NCBI GenBank assembly: GCA_002450905.1
Contig: DKAT01000049.1
Span: forward strand, 11,554 to 75,553
Length of the DNA stretch: 64,000 nucleotides
Source of the DNA: Spirochaetia bacterium UBA6919
Lineage (GTDB): Bacteria; Spirochaetota; UBA6919
Direction of reading: 5' to 3'
Shown here: one piece after another, positions 6,366-52,962 of the stretch
Position numbering within the stretch: the stretch's first letter is position 1
Layout of the letters: the number at the start of each line of letters is the position of its first letter
Notes under the pieces: model-generated
The model's input: only the letters and a program-made list of their open reading frames with translations
Database searches by the model: none
Told to the model about the DNA's origin: nothing
Translations under genes and position numbers: made by a program

Positions 6366-7884
6366 TACCTGGTGGTTTTGATGTGATGTCATAAACAACC
6401 CTATTCACACCACGAACCTCATTGATAATGCGACTGGATATTTTAGCCAATACCTCATAGGGGAAGGGGTACCAATCAGCAGTCATACCATCTGTACTGT
6501 TGACAGCCCGAAGTGCTAAAACATCTTCATAAGTCCTGTCATCTCCCATGACGCCAACTGTTTTAACAGGTAACAGGACTACGAATGCCTGCCAAATATC
6601 GTTATAAAGATTTGCTTTATTAATTTCTTCTATCGCAATAGCATCTGCATGTCTGAGGGTATCCAGTTTCTCTTCTGTAATTTCACCAAGGATACGAATA
6701 GCTAATCCAGGTCCAGGGAATGGATGTCTGTGGATCATCTGGTCTGGTAATCCCAGTTCTTTTCCGAGTTCACGGACTTCATCCTTAAATAATTCTTTGA
6801 GTGGCTCTATAAGATTTAAATTCATTTTCTCGGGTAGACCACCGACATTGTGATGTGACTTAATTTTTGCAGATGGATTTGTAAGGGACTGGCTTTCAAT
6901 GATATCAGGATATAATGTTCCCTGTGCAAGGAAGTGAACTTCACCTAATTGTTTGGCTTCTTCATCAAAGACAGCTATAAATTCATGTCCAATAATTTTT
7001 CTCTTTCTCTCTGGATCAGTTACACCTTTTAATTTATCAAGAAATTGTTTCTGTGCATGAACTACATCTAAATTTATATGATAATTTCCTCTGAATAGAT
7101 TTATGACATTCTCTTCTTCGTTAAGTCGCAGTAACCCATTATTAACAAAAATGCATGTCAGTTGTTCCCCTATAGCCTTATGCAGGAGTACAGCTGTAAC
7201 GGCTGAATCAACACCACCACTTAATGCACAGATGACTTTCTTATTTTGCACCTTTGTCTGAATATCTTTTATGGCTTGCTCAACAAAAGAACCCATGGTC
7301 CATGAGCCATGAACCTTACAAATATTAAACAAAAAATTAGATATTATAGTTTTACCAAATTGAGTATGAGCTACTTCAGGATGGAATTGGACTCCATAAA
7401 TATGATTTTTTTGGATTGCGGCATATTTCGTATCACTCGTTTCACATATACCAGAAAAGCCCTCAGGTAATATTTCTACACTATCACCATGACTCATCCA
7501 TACTACTGAAGCACTTTTAACATCATGAAATAATTTATTTTCTTTAGGTATTGTAATTTCTGCTTTCCCATATTCCCGTTTAATTGCCTTATGAACCTTT
7601 CCACCAAGCTCATTAGCTATAAAATGCATACCATAACAGATTCCAAGGACAGGTATTCCCAAATTCAATAGACCAGGTGATGCTTTGTATGGATTATCAT
7701 CATAAATACTTTTAGGACCTCCAGAAAGAATTATGCCTTTGACATTCCGCTTCTGAAGTTCATCAGGAGATATACGATAGGATAATATTTCGCAATATAC
7801 ATGGAATTCACGTACTTTTCTTGCAATCAATTGAGTGTATTGCGATCCAAAATCTAATATGGCTATGATTTCATTGTGGGTCAT
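6349..7884 (-). CDS. guaA: GMP synthase (glutamine-hydrolysing)
   Basis: N-terminal class I glutamine amidotransferase (GICYGMH, Cys-His), a PP-loop SGGVDS, and the conserved C-terminal ...PGTIEWE. Confidence 0.92.
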
Positions 7885-9044
7885 TATTTACCCATACCAA
7901 CACTTTGTGCTCTTTGGAACGCCTTTCCTTCAGTACGAATACTTGGAGCAACAATCATTTCGCACATTTGCATTTCCCGAATATCTGTTGCACCACAATT
8001 TCCCATAGAGTTTTTAAGAGCTCCCACAAGATTCTGGCTTCCATCATCATATCGTGCTGGTCCTAGTAATATTTCTTTTAGAGTCCCCATCACACCAACA
8101 TGAATACGTGTCCCACGCGGAAGCAGTATACTTGGAGTTGCCATCCCCCAATGATAACCCTTTCCTGGTGCCTCTTCAGATTTAGCAAAGGCTGATCCTA
8201 TCATAACAGCATCAGCACCTGATGCAATAGCTTTACATAAATCTCCACCACCACGCATACCACCATCTGTTATTACTGATATATATTTTCCAGTCTTCTT
8301 ATAATAAAAATCCCTTGCTGCTGCTGCATCGACTGTTGCTGTAATTTGAGGGACACCTATTCCCAAGACTTCCCGAGTAGTGCATGCAGCTCCAGGTCCT
8401 ACACCAATTAAGATCGAATCGATACCTGTTTCCATTAGCTCAAGGGTAGCTTCATAACTTACAGTATTTCCGACGATGATTGGAATATTCATCTCTTTGC
8501 AAAACTTTTTAAAATCCAAGGACTTATATTGACTTGAGATATGTCGAACAGTTGTAACAGTGGATTGAACCACGAAAATATCTACTCCTGCGTCTTTTGC
8601 TATTTTAGAATATTTATCGGCATTTGGAGGTGTTGCTGAGACAGCCGCTTTAACACCAGCTTCCTTAATTTCACGAATACGTTTTGTTATTAATTTCTCT
8701 TTGACGGGTTCTTTGTATATTTCTTGTAATATATTGGTTACAGTCTCTTTAGGAGCTTCAACTATACGATTCAGGTGTTCTTCAGGATATTCGAATTTAG
8801 TTTGCAAGCCTTCGAGATTAAGAACTGCAAGTCCACCCAGCTTTCCCATTTCTATAGCAAAGCGAGTATCGACAACACCATCCATTGCAGATGCAATGAT
8901 AGGTATTTCAAACGTATGCCCTCCTACTTTCCAGGTTACATCAACATCATTCGGATCAATGGTCACCTGTCCTGGTACCAGTGCCACATCATCAAATCCA
9001 TAGGTATAACGTGCTTTTCTACCTCTTCCAATCCAAATACCCAT
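7884..9044 (-). CDS. guaB: IMP dehydrogenase family protein lacking the CBS (Bateman) pair
   Basis: Catalytic-loop motif [11 protein letters not shown] with Cys, and the IMPDH/GMPR TIM-barrel motifs GGMRGGGD and [12 protein letters not shown]. At 386 aa it is about 100 aa shorter than canonical IMPDH. The stop abuts the guaA start. Confidence 0.8.
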
Positions 9045-30649: not shown

Positions 30650-30723
30650 CTTTCTTTAAATCTTTTGTAAGAAGGTCGATAAATTAAATGGACATTTATA
30701 ATTCAAAAAAGGGGTAATAGCTT

Positions 30724-44075: not shown

Positions 44076-44978
44076 ATGGATCAAGCTGAAACTCTTTTAA
44101 AAATTATGAAGGAAAAACAATCCAAGGGGACAACAAAATCCCATGCTGGACCAAGAATTATTACAATATCCAGTGGGAAAGGTGGGGTTGGAAAGACAAA
44201 TGTCTCAACAAATCTTGCAATCAATATGGCTAAGTTAGGTAAAGAAGTAGTAGTTATGGATGCTGATTTAGGTCTGGCAAATGTAAATGTAATGCTTGGT
44301 ATAATCCCAAAATATAATCTATACAATGTTTTAAAGGGACAGAAAACCATTAGTGAAGTCATTACTGACACTCCTGAAGGTATTAAAATCATAGCTGGAG
44401 CCTCTGGTTTCAGTCAACTCGCTGATCTTAATCATGAACAAAAAGCAAATTTTGTTAGAGATATAGAAAAATTAGATTCTGTTGATGTGGTGTTTATAGA
44501 TACAGGGGCAGGTATATCAGATAACGTTTTAAGTTTCGTAGTAGCAGCTGATGAGGTCATTATTGTTACAACTCCAGAACCCACAGCAATTACTGATGCT
44601 TATGGTATTATCAAAACTATTGCTTCTAAAAAAATAGAATCAAATATAAAGCTGATTGTCAATAGAGTCCAAAGTGAGAATGAAGCAAATAAAGTTGCTG
44701 AGAGAGTAATTAACATTGCAAATCAGTTTCTTGGTGTCAAAGTAGAAAATCTTGGATTTATTTACGAGGATTCAATAGTTTCAAAATCTGTTATTAAGCA
44801 AAGACCATTCTTTGAAGTGGATCCAAAGTCAAAGGCATCTCTATGTATTACTGATATTTGTCTCCGTCTCGAACAGCTAGATGTCCCTCATCAGAGAAAA
44901 AAAGGTTTAGCAGGATTTTTTAGTAGTTTTCTTAATTATTACAAAGAAAAAAAACACAATGAGTTAGAGTATGAGTGA
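44076..44978 (+). CDS. flhG: MinD/ParA-family ATPase FlhG (YlxH/FleN)
   Basis: Deviant Walker A SGKGGVGKT, and position directly after flhF. Confidence 0.85.
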   Translation: MDQAETLLKIMKEKQSKGTTKSHAGPRIITISSGKGGVGKTNVSTNLAINMAKLGKEVVVMDADLGLANVNVMLGIIPKYNLYNVLKGQKTISEVITDTPEGIKIIAGASGFSQLADLNHEQKANFVRDIEKLDSVDVVFIDTGAGISDNVLSFVVAADEVIIVTTPEPTAITDAYGIIKTIASKKIESNIKLIVNRVQSENEANKVAERVINIANQFLGVKVENLGFIYEDSIVSKSVIKQRPFFEVDPKSKASLCITDICLRLEQLDVPHQRKKGLAGFFSSFLNYYKEKKHNELEYE

Positions 44979-45534
44979 TAAAAATGAGTTTGAATTAAAA
45001 AATGAGCCTGAGTTCACAGAAGAAGATTTTTTAAAAAATTCTCAAGAGAATATTGCAGATGAAAATAAAGTTGATGAAGCTGAAATTCCGAAGAATTCAA
45101 TAAAGGAGTATTTCCAAAAAAATCCATTTTCCGTAAAAATTGCTGTCTTTCTAGCTGGAATTGCTGTTGTTTTGGTGCTTATTGTCGGTATAATTAGTGG
45201 AATAAGTTTTTTTTGGACAATCATCTGGAGAATGTTCTTATATGGTGTTATTTTTGCAGGTATGGGTTATGCGATAGGAATTATTCTTGAAAAATATGTC
45301 CCGGAGCTTTTTAATATGGAACAAAATCAAGAAGATGAACTAGGTGAACACGTTGATTATACTACTGAAGATGATCTCAATAATATTTCAGAAAATGATC
45401 TATCGGATGACTTCTATCAGGGATCAAATCCTAAACAGGATAAGTTGACAAAGTTGTCCAAGGAGTATGCTATCCCAAATGATCCTAAAATATTAGCTGA
45501 TGCTATCAGGACGAAATTATATGAGGATAAATAA
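44971..45534 (+). CDS. Small membrane protein of unknown function (two TM, acidic termini), between flhG and fliA
   Basis: Two hydrophobic segments (IAVFLAGIAVVLVLIVGII, FLYGVIFAGMGYAIGIIL) flanked by D/E-rich regions. Overlaps the flhG stop by 8 nt. Confidence 0.45.
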   Translation: MSDKNEFELKNEPEFTEEDFLKNSQENIADENKVDEAEIPKNSIKEYFQKNPFSVKIAVFLAGIAVVLVLIVGIISGISFFWTIIWRMFLYGVIFAGMGYAIGIILEKYVPELFNMEQNQEDELGEHVDYTTEDDLNNISENDLSDDFYQGSNPKQDKLTKLSKEYAIPNDPKILADAIRTKLYEDK

Positions 45535-45704: not shown

Positions 45705-46481
45705 GTGTTAGATAAATCTGAAGATGAATTATGGGATGATTATAAAAAAACAAAAGATCCTCTAATTAGAGAGGCATTTATTGTTCAGTATGCTCCATTG
45801 GTAAAATATGTTGCGGGTAAAATTGCTATGGGTATGCCACAGAATATAGAATTCGATGACCTTGTTGGATATGGTATTTTTGGTTTGCTGGATGCTATTG
45901 AAAAGTTTGACCCATCTCGGGAAATTAAGTTCAAAACTTATGCCGTGACAAGAATACGGGGAGCTATTTATGATGAATTAAGGTCCATTGACTGGGTCCC
46001 AAGATCCATTCGTCAGAAGGCAAAAGAAATTGAAACCATTGTTGGTACCCTGGAAAATAAACTTGGAAGAGCTGTTACAGATGAAGAAATCGCCAAGGAG
46101 TTGGGTATCCAGGTGGATGATTTCCATCAAACTTTGCTAAAAATCTGCGGGACATCTCTTATATCCATTAATGATGCTTGGTATCTGGGGGATGACACGG
46201 ATAAAGTATCGATAATAGAAACCATTGAAAGCCCCAATTCTTTAAATCCAGATATCATGGTCGAAAAAGAAGAAGTTAAAAAAATGATAGTTAAAATTAT
46301 AGAGGATTTACCAGAAAAAGAAAAAAAAGTCCTAATCCTATATTATTATGAAGATCTTACTTTAAAAGAAATCGGAGAAATATTAAATGTAACAGAATCA
46401 AGAGTTTCTCAATTACACACTAAAGCTATTATACGACTGAGAAGTAAACTTAATCACATTAAAACGAGTCTGTTAGTATAA
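45705..46481 (+). CDS. fliA: Flagellar sigma factor sigma-28 (FliA/SigD/WhiG family)
   Basis: GTG start with an AAGGGGGAG ribosome-binding site. Sigma-70 region 2 ([21 protein letters not shown]...[17 protein letters not shown]) and region 4 HTH ([29 protein letters not shown]), with no region 1. Confidence 0.85.
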
Positions 46482-46496
46482 TTATGGGGAATATCT

Positions 46497-48485
46497 ATGG
46501 CATCCATAAGTGATTTAAAAAATCAATTATCATCCAAAGTTACAAATGAAAATACAAATGTTGAACAAATGGATAATTCAGCTGAATTTATCGCTGATTC
46601 TATTGATCAGGCTATGGATGATGCTTGTATACATTTTAGAACAAGCCGTATTAATCTAGATTATGAAGTTGTTCAAAAAGCTCGTAATGGCATTTTAGGT
46701 ATTGGTAAACGACCATTTAAAGTTATCATTTGGCGGGTTGGAAGTATTAGCCAGACAAGTAATTCAATGATGTTTGATACTAAAATTGATTCAGGATTTG
46801 CTAACCTTGACACAGCCTCTGGAGAGACAATAGAAGACGATGGCTCACCAGTAAATGGCGTTGCTAAAGTGATCATTCGTAAAAGTGGTGTATTTTTAAA
46901 AGTTACTCCCCCAAAAAATAATGGGAAACCAGCAAGTCTTGATGATGTACAACTAGCTCTTGCAAGTAGAAATATCAAAAATTATCGTGTTAATGAAATA
47001 AAAAATATTACAAAAGACTCAACGGGTGAGGAAGTTAGAATAGCTGATTGGCACCCAAATCCTGATTATGATTCAAAAGCAAGTCTGGAAATATCTCCAG
47101 ATCAAATGAAGGCATATCTTACAGTCACAGCACCCATCCTCACTGGACGGCTTTTGGAAGCGGATGAAATATTAGATCTCTTAAAAGTCGAAGGGGTCGT
47201 TTATGGAATCATGGATGATAAAATCCAAAGTGTCTTTGAAAAAGAATTATTTAATGTTCCAGTACTGGTTGCTGAAGGAAAATCACCGCAACAGGGTACT
47301 AATGCAAAAAATGAATTTAAATTTAGTATTGACCATAGTGACTTTAAATTCGAAGAAGATGAATCTGGAAAGGTTGATTACAAAACATTAGATCTTGTAC
47401 AAAATGTCGTAGCTGGACAGGTTCTAGCAGTAAAAACCCCGGCAACTCTTGGTATTCCAGGTCGCACAATCACAAATAATAGAATAGATGCAAAAAACGG
47501 TGAAGATGTTTCTTTTGAAGCAGGGAAAAATACTATTCTCTCAGAAAATGGACTTGAAATTATTGCTCAAATCGCTGGTAGAGCTGTATTGTTAGCAGGT
47601 GTTATCTCAGTTGATCCTATTTATGAAATTAAAGGTGATGTTGATTTGAATACTGGAAATATCATATTTTTAGGTACTGTAGTTATTAAAGGAAGTATAC
47701 TTGATGGTTTCTCAGTTAAAGCAGCTGGAAATATAGAAGTACGTGGAAATATCGGCAAAGCGGAAGTGGAATCCGATAATGAGATTATTGTAGGACAAGG
47801 TATTTTAGGAAAAAATGCAGGGCTTATTAAAGCGGGAACAAATCTTTACGCCAAATTCATAGAAAATGCTAATATCTCCGCTGGAAATGATGTAATTGTT
47901 AAGGAAGAAGTCCTTCATAGCTTTGTAGATGCTGGAAACCGTGTTATTTGTCATGGGAAGAAAGGATGGGTCGTAGGAGGAAGAGTCAGAGCTGGTTTTG
48001 AAATCAGTGCAAAAAGTCTTGGATCAACTGCATATTCAGATACTTATCTGGAAGCAGGAATTGACCCTAAATATAAAGAAAAACTCCTTAGATTAGAAGA
48101 GGAGCGAGAGATGAACGAAACACAGTTGAATAAAATTATCTCAAATATTGCTACCTTGCAACGTGCAAAAGAAGCTGGTAATTTATCTGAAGAAAAAGAA
48201 ATTATGTTAACAAGAATGGAACGTGCAAAAAAAGAATTTGAATTACAATATTCTGAAATACAAGAAGATATAGCTGAGTTACAACACTATCTAGATAATT
48301 TAGATAATAAAGGAAAGATTTCAGGTAAATTAAATGTCTTTCCAGGAGTAGATTTAACCATTAAAAATGCTAATTTTGTTGTTAAAAATGATTTCAAAGG
48401 TGTTACTTTTGTCAATGAAAATAATTTTATTAAACCTGTTCCCTATCAGCCTTTCAAAGGGGAAGAGGAACAAAATAGACGATAA
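46497..48485 (+). CDS. FapA-like (DUF342) flagellar-assembly-associated protein
   Basis: 662 aa with a central beta-solenoid-like tandem repeat region rich in G-N-(I/V) (GNIIFLGTVVIKGSILDGFSVKAAGNIEVRGNIGKAEVESDNEIIVGQGILG...) and a C-terminal coiled coil. This is the architecture of DUF342/FapA proteins often found next to fliA. Confidence 0.6.
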   Translation: MASISDLKNQLSSKVTNENTNVEQMDNSAEFIADSIDQAMDDACIHFRTSRINLDYEVVQKARNGILGIGKRPFKVIIWRVGSISQTSNSMMFDTKIDSGFANLDTASGETIEDDGSPVNGVAKVIIRKSGVFLKVTPPKNNGKPASLDDVQLALASRNIKNYRVNEIKNITKDSTGEEVRIADWHPNPDYDSKASLEISPDQMKAYLTVTAPILTGRLLEADEILDLLKVEGVVYGIMDDKIQSVFEKELFNVPVLVAEGKSPQQGTNAKNEFKFSIDHSDFKFEEDESGKVDYKTLDLVQNVVAGQVLAVKTPATLGIPGRTITNNRIDAKNGEDVSFEAGKNTILSENGLEIIAQIAGRAVLLAGVISVDPIYEIKGDVDLNTGNIIFLGTVVIKGSILDGFSVKAAGNIEVRGNIGKAEVESDNEIIVGQGILGKNAGLIKAGTNLYAKFIENANISAGNDVIVKEEVLHSFVDAGNRVICHGKKGWVVGGRVRAGFEISAKSLGSTAYSDTYLEAGIDPKYKEKLLRLEEEREMNETQLNKIISNIATLQRAKEAGNLSEEKEIMLTRMERAKKEFELQYSEIQEDIAELQHYLDNLDNKGKISGKLNVFPGVDLTIKNANFVVKNDFKGVTFVNENNFIKPVPYQPFKGEEEQNRR

Positions 48486-48505
48486 TCTATCAGGGAGGGG
48501 TTCAG

Positions 48506-49192
48506 TTGATCGATGTCTTATTATTTATCTTATTTGCAGTAAATTTTGCAATCACTATCACTTTGTATATACGTTTTCATAATAGCCAATCCGATGCTAG
48601 GATTGATGAAATCCGTAAAGAGATGTCTGAAATGATTGCTAAATTCAATAAAGATGCTGATAGAAATATCCAAATCTTAGAAGATACAATCCAGAAAACA
48701 AATGAATCTATTAGAAAATATGAAATTATCAAACTAAACGAAAAAAATATCAATCCCCCTGAACCAATCCCCAATGAAACCAATAAAATTATTCCTGTAA
48801 ATCATACACCCGCTCCTGAAAAGAAAAAAAAGCCATCTTTCATCATCAAAAAAGAAGATAATAATTCTGAACAAGTGACCAAACCCAAATTTAATGAATT
48901 CAACCCTGATCCAAAACCAAAATCATTCATCCAGCAAGCATATGGACAAGCTGATAATAAAAATAAACCTAAAAATCCTCCTGTTGAAGAAGAAATCATT
49001 AAACCCAAACCTGTTGATAAATTTATTAAAACTAAATTACCTGAAGACCTAGACGATAAAAACATCCATCACAAAATCGCAAGACTCATTGGAGAAGGAC
49101 ATTCCTTAGAAGAAATATCAAGGATTCTTGAAATGAGTCAGGGTGAGATTAAACTTCTGGCAACTCTCTTAAAAAAGAAATTAGTAGGCTAA
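48506..49192 (+). CDS. Membrane-anchored protein with a K/P-rich linker and a C-terminal HTH-like segment
   Basis: TTG start with a GGGAGGGG ribosome-binding site. N-terminal TM (VLLFILFAVNFAITITLYI). The C-terminus IARLIGEGHSLEEISRILEMSQGEIKLLATLLKKK resembles a sigma-70 region-4 / LuxR-type HTH. Confidence 0.4.
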   Translation: MIDVLLFILFAVNFAITITLYIRFHNSQSDARIDEIRKEMSEMIAKFNKDADRNIQILEDTIQKTNESIRKYEIIKLNEKNINPPEPIPNETNKIIPVNHTPAPEKKKKPSFIIKKEDNNSEQVTKPKFNEFNPDPKPKSFIQQAYGQADNKNKPKNPPVEEEIIKPKPVDKFIKTKLPEDLDDKNIHHKIARLIGEGHSLEEISRILEMSQGEIKLLATLLKKKLVG

Positions 49193-49457
49193 TAAAAAAA
49201 TCTTATAAGTACGCAACTAATCAAATATTATAAAAGTCTTAAAAAAATCATCGACAATCGATTTACAAATAAATACGTTTCTTATTATTTTATTAAAAAA
49301 CATCGATATTTAATAAAGATATTTTAAACTGAAATCTATCTTATTCTATTTTACGGTGTTTTATACTCTGTATTTAATTAGATGAATATGACGAATAATA
49401 ATTCACGATGTTTGTAAAGTTACAATTTTCATTAATGGTATAAATAAAGGACGACAA

Positions 49458-51206
49458 ATGGATAAAATTCTTGGAATCGATCTAGGTACGACTAATTCAG
49501 TCATGGCGGTTGTTGAAAATGGAAAACCAATTATAATCCATAATAAAAAAGGTGATCGCCTTACCCCTTCTGTTGTTGCATTCACAAAGAATAATGAAAT
49601 TCTGGTAGGAAAACCTGCAAAAAATCAGAGTATACTCAATTCTGAAAAAACTATTTCTTCCGTAAAAAGGAATATGGGGACCACTCAAAAATATCAAATT
49701 GGTAAGAATACATATACCCCTCAGGAGATTTCTGCAAAAATCCTCCATAAAATCAAAGAAGATGCGGAAGATTATTTTGGAACAGAAATTTCAAAAGCAG
49801 TCATCACCGTTCCTGCATATTTTAATGACAATCAAAGACAAGCAACTAAGGAAGCTGGACGTATAGCAGGATTTGATGTTCTGAGAATTATCAATGAGCC
49901 CACAGCCGCCGCCCTCGCTTATGGAATCAATGATCATGAAAACCAGGTAATACTAATCTATGATCTGGGCGGAGGGACATTTGATGTATCCATTCTGGAA
50001 ATAGGGGAGGGGGTGTTTGAAGTCAAAGCGACCACTGGAAATAATCATTTAGGTGGTGATGATTTTGATGCAAAGCTAATGAATTATGTTCTGAAAAAAT
50101 ATAAGGAACAAAACAACATAGATCTAACCAAAGATATCATGGCTTGTCAGAAACTCAAAGAAGAAATTGAAAAAGTCAAAATTGAACTCTCAGAAATAGA
50201 ATCCGTTGATCTGAATATTCCATTTATTTCAGCAGATGAAAAAGGTCCAAGACATTTAAATATAAATATAAACAGGCAATTATTTGAAGAACTGATTCAG
50301 GAATATATCGAAGAAACGATCTATCTCATGGAAAAATGTTTAAAAGATAGCAAATTAGAAAAAAATGATATTGACAAGGTTCTTCTTGTAGGTGGTTCTA
50401 CTCGTATTCCATTGGTTTATAATTCTGTTGAAAAAGCATTATCAAAAAAAATATCAAAAGGGGTCAACCCCGATGAATGTGTAGCACTGGGTGCTGCTAT
50501 ACAGGCTTCGATTTTAAGTGGTGAAAAAAAGGGGATGGTGCTTGTTGATGTTACTCCTCTCTCAATGGGAATAGAAATCGAAGGAGGTGTTTTTGTCCCT
50601 ATAATTGAAAGAAATTCAACGATACCTATTACGAAAAGTAAATTATTTACAACGATATCTGATTATCAGCAAAGTGTTGAAATCCGTGTATATCAGGGTG
50701 AAAGAGTCCGCTGTGTGGATAATATATCCCTGGGTGAATGCCAATTAAAAAATATTAGACCAGCCAAAAAAGGTCTCCCTCGAATTGAAGTAAATTTTGT
50801 CATTGATGTCAATGGGATCTTACAAGTCAGCGCTAAAGATCTAGATAGTGGAAATATGCAGAAAGTAATCATAAAAAATCCCACCAGCCTCTCGGATGAG
50901 AAAATACAAAATATTATTGAAAATGCCAAAAAAAATAAACACACGGATCAGGAAGTATTAAAAATTGAGCAAATAAAACAATTGTTTGATACAAGTTATC
51001 AGCGTTTAAAACTATTATATGAAGATAAAATAAATATAATTGATGCGAATTTAAAGAAGGATATACAGACAGCCCTCAAGAAATCCGAAAAAAAAATTAA
51101 AAGACCAAAATCTGATGAACTGGTTGATTTAATAGATCAAATGGATTTTCTCTACGAAGAATTAAAAATAAGTTATTCCAATGACAGAGAAGGGGTAGAA
51201 GTTTGA
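49458..51206 (+). CDS. Hsp70-family chaperone paralogue (HscC-like), not a canonical DnaK
   Basis: Actin-like NBD motifs (IDLGTTNS, DLGGGTFDVS, a second phosphate motif VGGSTRIP) and an SBD-beta. Lid is short; 582 aa total; C-terminus ...REGVEV. There is no grpE/hrcA context. Confidence 0.85.
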   Translation: MDKILGIDLGTTNSVMAVVENGKPIIIHNKKGDRLTPSVVAFTKNNEILVGKPAKNQSILNSEKTISSVKRNMGTTQKYQIGKNTYTPQEISAKILHKIKEDAEDYFGTEISKAVITVPAYFNDNQRQATKEAGRIAGFDVLRIINEPTAAALAYGINDHENQVILIYDLGGGTFDVSILEIGEGVFEVKATTGNNHLGGDDFDAKLMNYVLKKYKEQNNIDLTKDIMACQKLKEEIEKVKIELSEIESVDLNIPFISADEKGPRHLNININRQLFEELIQEYIEETIYLMEKCLKDSKLEKNDIDKVLLVGGSTRIPLVYNSVEKALSKKISKGVNPDECVALGAAIQASILSGEKKGMVLVDVTPLSMGIEIEGGVFVPIIERNSTIPITKSKLFTTISDYQQSVEIRVYQGERVRCVDNISLGECQLKNIRPAKKGLPRIEVNFVIDVNGILQVSAKDLDSGNMQKVIIKNPTSLSDEKIQNIIENAKKNKHTDQEVLKIEQIKQLFDTSYQRLKLLYEDKINIIDANLKKDIQTALKKSEKKIKRPKSDELVDLIDQMDFLYEELKISYSNDREGVEV

Positions 51207-52078
51207 TGACTAAACATCATGATGAAAATTATTATAAAGTGTTGGGAATTGAGTACCACGCAACGGACAATGATATAAAGAGTGCGTATAGGCGATTAAT
51301 GTTACAATACCATCCTGATGTTTCAAAGGAGCCAGTCCGTGTTGATAACTTTGAGAGGGTAGTCAGAGCTTATAAAGTCCTCAGTGATTCTAAAAAACGG
51401 GCTGAATATAATCGAATAAATAATATTAATGCATTTCGATTTACAAACCATTCATACACTGGATTCAAGGAAACTCATGTCAAGGAATTTCCTGAAGAAA
51501 AACCAATCAAATCAAGTGTATTTAGTTCATTCACAGATCGATTTTTTAATAGGAACCCAGAAGAAAAAATATCAGACGAACTTAATAATGCATTTCACGT
51601 CTCAGATGATATTATAAAACTGGATATAGAAGACCTTATCAATCAATATGAAATCAGTACAAATAAATTTGTCAGGATAGAATCATTAAAAGCTATTGTA
51701 AAAAAATTGGGAAAAATGAGTTATAAAATAATAGAAAATGCCTTAGAGGATACAAGTAAAGAGGTTAGAGAGGTTGCTATTAAGGCAATTGGATTACTAC
51801 AAATCAGACAGGGAATCTATTCCCTTGAAAAGTTATATAAAGAAAGCAGTACGGATGTTAAAAAATCGATAGTAATATCAGTAGCTAACTTGCAATTTCA
51901 AAAAAGTAATGATCTTTTATTGAAGTTTTGTTATGATTACAATGATGATATAAAATTGATAGCTTTAAAGGCAGTTCAGCAATATAAATTAAAAAATGTA
52001 TCGCTATTAAAAGGCTTGCTGCACGATAAAAACCCGTCCATAAAACAGTTAGTCCAAAATATCCTTAAAAATAGCTAA
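51203..52078 (+). CDS. J-domain protein with C-terminal HEAT/PBS-lyase-like repeats (DjlC-like partner of the Hsp70 paralogue)
   Basis: J-domain YYKVLGIEYHATDNDIKSAYRRLMLQYHPD with the HPD tripeptide. There is no G/F or Zn-finger region. C-terminal repeats KEVREVAIKAIGLL and DIKLIALKAVQQY. Start overlaps the Hsp70 stop (ATGA). Confidence 0.8.
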   Translation: MMTKHHDENYYKVLGIEYHATDNDIKSAYRRLMLQYHPDVSKEPVRVDNFERVVRAYKVLSDSKKRAEYNRINNINAFRFTNHSYTGFKETHVKEFPEEKPIKSSVFSSFTDRFFNRNPEEKISDELNNAFHVSDDIIKLDIEDLINQYEISTNKFVRIESLKAIVKKLGKMSYKIIENALEDTSKEVREVAIKAIGLLQIRQGIYSLEKLYKESSTDVKKSIVISVANLQFQKSNDLLLKFCYDYNDDIKLIALKAVQQYKLKNVSLLKGLLHDKNPSIKQLVQNILKNS

Positions 52079-52302: not shown

Positions 52303-52962
52303 TTATTCTAATTTACGCCACATTTTTAGACGATTATCCCAATATGTAGGGTTTAGATGTTTAAATCGAGGTTTTGATTGGTTTTTCTGATTGTCAAGGT
52401 GAGTTTTATAGAGATTTGAAAGGCGATTAATTTCCTCCATTTGTATGTTTGTAGGTTCAGGATTTTTATATGATTTTGCAGTATCTAATTGAATCAAAGC
52501 ATCTTGATATTTTTGATTCCTTCCAAGATTTTTTGCTTCCGAGATTAAATCATTGATCTTTTGTAGTTGTTTGTATTTTTTTAATAATTCGTTAATTTCT
52601 TTTTGTTGTTCAGGTGTGAGATTTTGACTATTTTCTTCAGCACCTGGCTCGCTTGATTTACCAAGATTTTTTGCTTCATTTAATTTTTTTATGGCTTGTT
52701 TATATTCTCCTTTATCTCCAAGTTCTTTTGCTTCCTGGATTAGTTCATCTACTTTATTTTTATTTTCTTTGTTATTATTTGGCTTGTCATCCTTAATTAC
52801 TTTCTCTTTTTTAATTTCAGGTTTTTTTGTTTCATTTCCAGAACAATTCATAATGAATACGCTTAGGAGAAATATATTAAACACAGTTATTATTACTTTC
52901 ATAACACATCCATCATTTATTATATGTATAATAAATATAACACGTAATTTTAAAAAAATCAA
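52303..52962 (-). CDS. Secreted or lipoprotein with internal helical repeats (…EAKNLG…); true start probably the Met at 52902
   Basis: Leader MKVIITVFNIFLLSVFIMNCSG, then a K/E-rich region containing two similar ~40-aa repeats (ELIQEAKELGDKGEYKQAIKKLNEAKNLGK and DLISEAKNLGRNQKYQDALIQLDTAKSY). Confidence 0.5.
   Translation of the reverse strand: MIFLKLRVIFIIHIINDGCVMKVIITVFNIFLLSVFIMNCSGNETKKPEIKKEKVIKDDKPNNNKENKNKVDELIQEAKELGDKGEYKQAIKKLNEAKNLGKSSEPGAEENSQNLTPEQQKEINELLKKYKQLQKINDLISEAKNLGRNQKYQDALIQLDTAKSYKNPEPTNIQMEEINRLSNLYKTHLDNQKNQSKPRFKHLNPTYWDNRLKMWRKLE

Follow-up and report, generated by a model that had tools for sequence, protein, structure and literature searches.

The 64,000-nucleotide (nt) stretch analysed here, from contig DKAT01000049.1 of Spirochaetia bacterium UBA6919 (assembly GCA_002450905.1) and hereafter called the window, carries two adjoining genes at the end of a flagellar gene cluster, one encoding an Hsp70 of 582 amino acids (aa) with the C-terminal end REGVEV and the other a protein in which a J-domain is followed by HEAT repeats (J-HEAT). 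An earlier reading of the same DNA, the original prediction, had described these two open reading frames (ORFs), and both lie at the positions that it gave, with the following elements:

49458..51206, + strand: Hsp70 of the flagellar-cluster clade, DnaK-like (ORF; Pfam HSP70, E=1.8e-202; residue checks; indels; clade bootstrap 98%)
51206..52078, + strand: J-domain and HEAT-repeat co-chaperone, class C J-domain protein (JDP), 290 aa from ATG (ORF; Pfam; family alignment)
49447..49451, + strand: Shine-Dalgarno-like AAGGA, 6 nt upstream of the start codon (ATG) of the Hsp70 gene (read from the sequence)
51189..51195, + strand: Shine-Dalgarno-like GAAGGGG within the 3′-terminal part of the Hsp70 coding sequence, 10 nt ahead of the J-HEAT start codon (ATG) (read from the sequence)
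51230..51418, + strand: J-domain, residues 9–71 (Pfam DnaJ; helices in the AlphaFold model)
51434..51568, + strand: predicted disordered linker, residues 77–121, not rich in glycine and phenylalanine (G/F) (predicted local distance difference test score, pLDDT, <50; poorly conserved in the alignment)
51578..52075, + strand: HEAT-like alpha-solenoid, residues ~125–290 (Pfam HEAT_2/HEAT; pLDDT >90)

The stop codon of the Hsp70 gene (TGA, 51204–51206) overlaps the J-HEAT start within the junction GTT-TGA-TGA, either by 1 nt (TGATG), if translation begins at the ATG at 51206 as in the public gene call P0001 (290 aa), or by 4 nt (TTGA), if it begins at an alternative TTG at 51203, which would yield 291 aa; the ATGA overlap initially proposed is not what the junction reads. 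Judging from this arrangement, the two genes are plausibly translationally coupled, and the GAAGGGG site that precedes the J-HEAT start codon fits this. The window contains no further Hsp70, DnaJ or GrpE gene, in keeping with the predicted lack of a grpE/hrcA/dnaJ context.

Upstream and co-directional lies a spirochaete-type flagellar superoperon encoding FliF, FliI, FlgE, MotA, MotB, FliR, FlhB, FlhA, FlhF, FlhG, a 187-aa protein, FliA, FapA and a protein with a transmembrane segment and a helix-turn-helix (TM/HTH). Its last part reads as follows (loci of relatives carry L numbers):

44971..45534, + strand: FlgV-position protein, 187 aa, between flhG and fliA (same-position homologues in L001, L012, L024, L027 and L031)
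45705..46481, + strand: FliA (sigma-28), 258 aa (Pfam sigma-70 regions r2/r3/r4)
46497..48485, + strand: FapA, 662 aa, Jag_N, FapA_N and FapA beta-solenoid (Pfam; synteny)
48506..49192, + strand: TM/HTH protein, DUF6115/DUF2802-like, 228 aa (Pfam match below cut-off)
49193..49457, + strand: AT-rich spacer, 265 nt, from the TM/HTH gene to the Hsp70 gene (sequence)

The gap of 265 nt agrees with the roughly 270 bp by which the pair had been said to follow the fliA–FapA–HTH tail, and the Hsp70 gene occupies, co-directionally, the position after fapA–(yjfB)–TM/HTH at the 3′ end of the superoperon that defines a flagellar-superoperon Hsp70. The window order flhF–flhG–FlgV-position gene–fliA–fapA–TM/HTH is that of the sigma-28/FapA/YjfB/TM+HTH submodule described in the FlgV paper (Nat Commun 2024, PMC11607428), where BB0267 of Borrelia burgdorferi is named FapA; it differs in that the Hsp70/J-HEAT pair extends the submodule, and the text and supplements read of that paper name no Hsp70 or J-protein in it. 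The 187-aa ORF (44971–45534) overlaps the flhG stop and has no Pfam match; it shares its position with FlgV (BB0268, PMC11607428), and the likeness is positional only.

Eleven distinct flagellar-type loci were read, with four operon architectures among them, and in every one an Hsp70/J-HEAT pair lies downstream of fapA. This count covers Hsp70-side and J-side relatives whose context reached upstream, a grpE-linked outgroup excepted, and comprises eight loci from spirochaete metagenome-assembled genomes (the window, L001, L003, L011, L012, L024, L025/26 and L027/28), that of the cultured Sediminispirochaeta smaragdinae (L031/32), L029/30 and L033; the proposal of a non-canonical Hsp70/J pair tied to the fliA–FapA–HTH tail is thereby strongly borne out. 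L001 has the order flhA–flhF–flhG–x–fliA–fapA–TM/HTH–Hsp70–J, and S. smaragdinae flhA–flhF–flhG–x–fliA–fapA–YjfB-like–DUF6115–Hsp70–J/HEAT–cheA, with genes that overlap or abut; in L025/26 a STAS gene, not flhA/F/G, precedes fliA, and the Hsp70 start codon (ATG) overlaps the stop codon of the gene before it. L033, of fla/che type, reads cheB–cheR–cheC–cheD–x–fliA–fapA–YjfB-like–...–FlhB_C-like–Hsp70–J/HEAT–comFB, and its FliA is just 48% identical to spirochaete FliA proteins. L029/30, which is non-spirochaete because its genome holds type IX secretion system (T9SS)-tail proteins and L/P-ring genes (FlgH/FlgI), has the order fapA–motA–motB–Hsp70–J–flgF–flgG–flgA–flgH–flgI–flgJ–flgN–flgK–flgL–fliW–flagellin; its J-protein aligns with the J-HEAT family through the HEAT region, no fliA occurs within the 20 kb read and the TM/HTH gene is also missing.

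In all spirochaete loci read, the TM/HTH gene is the immediate upstream neighbour of the Hsp70 gene (homologues in L001, L003, L011, L012, L024, L025, L027 and L031), and several loci have no gap between the pair and the flagellar gene before it, the two abutting or overlapping. The spacing between the TM/HTH and Hsp70 genes ranges among relatives from overlap to 950 nt; given this variable length, some lineages may transcribe the pair from a separate promoter. The genes downstream of the pair are different in every locus, and the spirochaete loci have diverged in parallel (identities of 65–93% for FliA, 38–69% for FapA, 41–65% for Hsp70 and 25–46% for J-HEAT). Across lineages, FapA is the most constant neighbour of the pair.

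Within this conserved block, five relatives carry a small YjfB-like protein (107–116 aa; N-terminal PIDLQ, C-terminal NIDI) between fapA and the TM/HTH gene (L024, 9109–9453; L025, 8591–8917; L027, 8384–8734; L031, 7457–7786; L033, 5423–5746). It is absent from the window (48485–48506) and from the nearest relatives of the window, L001 and L012, where the TM/HTH gene directly follows fapA; the Borrelia small ORF BB0266 occupies the same position. In L003 (GCA_054920755.1, 2722–4489) two overlapping ORFs of 320 and 293 aa take the place of a single Hsp70 gene, through a frameshift (pseudogene) or an error of assembly, the J-HEAT gene being intact, and in L012 the spacer between the TM/HTH and Hsp70 genes (7277–8223) measures ~950 nt and holds no ORF of at least 100 aa.

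Only DnaK, HscA and HscC are recognised as prokaryotic Hsp70 types (Mayer review, PMC8215388). The comparison with these three that had been suggested as a check does place the window Hsp70 in a separate clade, but as a DnaK-like and not an HscC-type protein: it is 45% identical to Escherichia coli DnaK, 36% to HscA, 33% to HscC and 51–59% to Clostridia DnaKs, its best Protein Data Bank (PDB) match is Geobacillus DnaK (2v7y), and the next database matches beyond the clade are DnaKs of Clostridia and Thermoanaerobacterales (53–59% identity). The NCBIfam DnaK model PRK00290 scores 739 bits, above its cut-off of 648, whereas TIGR02350 (713 bits, cut-off 822.55) and PRK13411 (690 bits, cut-off 1002) stay below theirs. 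By its sequence the protein is a DnaK-type ATPase, with the catalytic residues D8, K70, E171, D194, G198, T199 and D201, the J-contact residues R167, N170 and T173, and the linker VLVDVTPL all kept. Relative to E. coli DnaK it lacks residues 79–102 and 208–211, both also missing in Clostridia DnaK, and the disordered C-terminal tail (610–638); the helical lid is full length, contrary to the short lid initially assigned. The missing 24-aa insert in the nucleotide-binding domain (NBD) was dropped as a decisive sign of paralogy, as many non-proteobacterial DnaKs lack it too (PMC8215388).

What sets the protein apart is R56N together with changes in the substrate arch, T403I, M404E and A429I/V, the arch changes being absent from canonical DnaKs. 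M404E and A429I/V occur in every flagellar-linked member aligned (the L003 and L006 copies being unscored) and T403I in nearly all of them, position 403 varying in two; M404E and A429I also recur in the grpE-linked Hsp70 of L004. In place of the hydrophobic arch (M404/A429) and disordered tail with an acidic motif that mark a canonical DnaK, the window protein has E404, I429 and no tail, and in place of a grpE/dnaJ operon it has a J+HEAT partner, with no GrpE or class A DnaJ in the 64 kb. About 20 database relatives of 575–616 aa make up the clade; neighbour-joining bootstraps recover its spirochaete members, 20 in number, as a monophyletic group in 98% of replicates, or in 79% once the non-spirochaete L029 is added. 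By these sequence comparisons, the Hsp70 belongs to a distinct DnaK-derived clade apart from canonical DnaK.

At their C-termini (51180–51203 in the window), the Hsp70s of the window sub-clade (P0122, P0123, P0125–P0127 and L006) carry the terminal sequence [RK]E(E/G)VE[VI] or one close to it, reminiscent of the EEVD co-chaperone-binding tail of eukaryotic Hsp70 and the EFEEV motif of DnaK; sub-clades L024, L025, L027, L029 and L031 end differently, so that the motif is not family-wide.

The partner protein matches Pfam DnaJ over residues 9–70 (E=3.1e-21), with HPD at 36–38, followed by HEAT_2/HEAT, and has no match to DnaJ_C (PF01556) or the zinc finger (PF00684). The invariant HPD, combined with the lack of a G/F region, zinc finger and DnaJ C-terminal domain, makes it a class C (type III) JDP. 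The J-domain and HEAT repeats had been predicted correctly; the PBS-lyase type also given for the repeats did not hold, as NblB (30.8 bits against 300) and PRK09687 (24 bits against 275) fell far below their cut-offs and reflect generic HEAT likeness only. In the AlphaFold model (mean pLDDT 79.6) the HEAT solenoid is presumed to be a client- or site-binding module; its best PDB matches in Foldseek are alphaRep and designed HEAT/armadillo binders, and as modelled the domain is a generic protein-binding scaffold. The family alignment displays, besides the invariant HPD, an SxN[KR][YF]VR motif at the first HEAT repeat, and neither Pfam nor Foldseek detected an anti-sigma-like feature. The family is rare, its size being known only roughly: a word-indexed search returned seven full-length matches, an exhaustive profile search ~9 full-length single-stretch representatives in a top 150 dominated by giant HEAT-repeat proteins, and a metagenome scan with the J-HEAT alignment one true member alone, L034 (on the same contig as L007), the rest being canonical dnaK–dnaJ loci.

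Among known systems, the closest sequence family is that of DnaK–DnaJ–GrpE, with which the Hsp70 shares catalytic, linker and J-interface residues and from which it differs by its separate clade, M404E/A429I, R56N, the lost tail and the absence of grpE from the neighbourhood; unlike DnaJ, its partner has no G/F region, zinc finger or C-terminal client-binding domains. HscA–HscB, which serves Fe-S cluster assembly, is likewise a dedicated Hsp70 and J-protein encoded in the operon of the client pathway (PMC8215388), but HscA membership was rejected at 36% identity, with TIGR01991 at 534 bits against 708.55, no isc genes nearby, a different operon and a partner that is not HscB-like. HscC with DjlC (and DjlB), which the pair had been thought to mirror, offers an analogy only. 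The likenesses are that a specialised Hsp70 has a class C J-protein of its own, encoded close by, and that NBD segment 76–101 and GrpE-type features are absent (PMC8215388); the differences are an identity of 33%, a position outside the HscC branch of the tree, the lack of the HscC-type L1,2 insertion or helix-B deletion in the substrate-binding domain, and the lack of a flagellar context in E. coli, where hscC and djlC are convergent and not translationally coupled. DjlC is moreover membrane-anchored and has no HEAT repeats; a DjlB/DjlC-type partner was set aside because J-HEAT matched DnaJ and HEAT domains alone, a membrane anchor not having been explicitly searched for.

A counterpart by position is found in B. 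burgdorferi, whose flgB superoperon extends from bb0294 to bb0264, with bb0268 co-transcribed with bb0272–bb0264 (PMC11607428). There, BB0267 (FapA) is followed by BB0266, BB0265 and BB0264 (hsp70, dnaK-1), the last two overlapping by 29 nt (tables of Lin et al.). The Hsp70 gene comes on the same strand after FapA, a small protein and a gene in the TM/HTH position (BB0265), and overlaps its upstream neighbour; BB0264 is the positional equivalent of the window Hsp70, matched by gene order. It is shorter, at 491 aa (277090–278565), and Borrelia is without fliA (sigma-28). BB0264 is the non-essential last gene of its superoperon, beside a separate, grpE-linked dnaK-2: transposon insertions in BB0264 were viable, with a reduced tissue positivity of ~47%, and none were obtained in BB518 (dnaK-2) or BB519 (grpE) (Lin et al.). 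By analogy, the window Hsp70 would be a paralogue and not the housekeeping DnaK.

The pair is probably a specialised two-gene Hsp70/class C J-protein system attached to the flagellar gene set. In such a system, the HEAT solenoid would bind one particular flagellar protein, or a site of assembly, the J-domain, tethered by a flexible linker of ~45 residues, would trigger ATP hydrolysis in the cognate Hsp70, and the latter would clamp and remodel the flagellar client. A client or site of action on the FapA side, in the FapA/YjfB/TM-HTH submodule, which is linked to the control of flagellar assembly, number or placement, is a tentative suggestion; another flagellar component is a rather unlikely client, and FliA a somewhat less likely one still. 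The FapA side is favoured over sigma-28 because the pair stays by fapA in four layouts, also without fliA. FapA is the best client candidate, with sigma-28 second, because the link with fapA is also seen where fliA is missing (Borrelia, L029) and where TM/HTH is missing (L029); of the flagellar or sigma/anti-sigma client initially envisaged, the second part has become less likely than the FapA side. In its most extended form, which can be put forward only with reserve, the proposal is that the pair may be an unrecognised ATP-driven flagellar assembly factor, distinct from type III export chaperones and conserved from spirochaetes to other flagellated phyla; docking of the HEAT domain, to FapA or to an FlhF/FlhG/FlgV/FapA polar assembly site, would be followed by remodelling or disassembly of the complex by the Hsp70, which would set flagellar number or placement, and Borrelia dnaK-1 would be a reduced form.

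Several observations weigh against an attachment of the pair to flagella. The outgroup loci L004, L008 and L009 read grpE–Hsp70–J/HEAT–TPR (tetratricopeptide repeat), with no flagellar genes within 10 kb, and the pair can therefore exist outside flagellar clusters; in L004 (7573–10861), the Hsp70 has 570 aa, the E404/I429 arch and 59% identity to a Clostridia DnaK, and this arrangement may be the ancestral, non-flagellar state of the pair. Moreover, no J-HEAT gene adjoins the Borrelia Hsp70 gene, which is followed by the convergent lepB-3; the 265-nt spacer parts the pair from the flagellar operon in the window; and the Hsp70 trees are neighbour-joining only.

Of the other explanations, control of sigma-28 by an Hsp70/J pair that holds or releases FliA fares best, and is nonetheless unlikely. 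HscC has been reported to act on sigma-70, and fliA lies 2–9 genes upstream in the window and nine other loci, that is, in all those read except L029. The control of sigma-32 by DnaK/DnaJ provides a further precedent (summarised in PMC8215388). On the other hand, the pair of L029/L030 comes after fapA with motB on one side and flgF on the other, and the 20 kb read there contain no fliA; Borrelia, without sigma-28, has yet kept its Hsp70 after fapA; and the J-HEAT protein displays no detected anti-sigma-like feature.

That the Hsp70 is a general stress or proteostasis paralogue without a flagellar role, riding on a highly expressed operon, is more improbable. The grpE outgroup loci without flagellar genes, a HEAT domain that resembles generic binders only and a Borrelia transposon phenotype of reduced infectivity, not specific to motility, all fit this explanation; hitch-hiking is, however, hard to square with an independent association with flagellar genes in at least four gene orders and at least three deeply diverged lineages, whose divergence follows from the 48% identity of the L033 FliA to those of spirochaetes and from the FlgH/FlgI and T9SS-tail proteins of L029. 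Least probable is a housekeeping DnaK with an unusual extra J-protein and a post-operon position that is inherited gene order without functional meaning: the PRK00290 equivalog cut-off is passed, identity to Clostridia DnaKs is 51–59%, ATPase, linker and lid are intact and a related pair adjoins grpE in L004, but TIGR02350 fails, grpE, dnaJ and hrcA are not nearby, the C-terminal tail is missing and the arch changed, the clade lies apart from canonical DnaK, the fapA...Hsp70–J block persists in four architectures while its flanks are reshuffled in every locus, and Borrelia has both a non-essential flagellar-operon copy and a grpE-linked dnaK-2.

Little is established about the part that FapA and the sigma-28/FapA/YjfB/TM-HTH submodule play in flagellar assembly, and, to our knowledge, specialised bacterial Hsp70/J pairs with a defined pathway are few, HscA/HscB being the sole clear case. 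A dedicated Hsp70/J pair is as a kind of system already known, and the Hsp70 gene that closes the Borrelia motility operon carries an annotation but has not been the subject of study. The original prediction knew of no description of such a pair in a flagellar context; this needs qualifying in that Borrelia dnaK-1 has long been annotated in the flgB superoperon, and holds in that no paper was found discussing it, the J-HEAT partner or the conservation across lineages, literature searches combining Hsp70/DnaK with FapA, flgB or the flagellar operon having yielded nothing relevant. The literature searched, the scope of which did not take in the bacterial J-protein survey of Barriot et al. 2020, appears to contain no description of the J-HEAT partner, of the arch signature or of the conservation of the pair in different architectures. 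The presence of the pair by fapA across operon layouts makes it a concrete, testable candidate for the missing biochemistry of the FapA submodule, with tractable carriers in B. burgdorferi (bb0264 transposon mutants, reduced infectivity) and cultured S. smaragdinae, and would explain a long-standing spirochaete oddity, a second 'dnaK' within the motility operon.

Around the pair, the 265-nt spacer (49193–49457) contains no terminator-like site and has no Rfam match, sigma-70-like sites are no commoner in it than in shuffles, and the homologous TM/HTH–Hsp70 spacers compared (140 to 950 nt) share no conserved promoter motif. Downstream, the pair is bounded by a convergent ORF (52303–52962, − strand) of 219 aa, low-complexity and lysine/glutamate-rich, which is not conserved there in relatives and has an N-terminal hydrophobic segment, possibly that of a lipoprotein. 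Sigma-28-like motifs (TAAA-N14-17-CGATAW) number nine in the window against 2.9 expected; one (49033–49059, + strand) falls within the last part of the TM/HTH coding sequence, 398 nt ahead of the Hsp70 start codon, and is not conserved in relatives, and another (30657–30682, + strand) lies ~40 nt before flgE.

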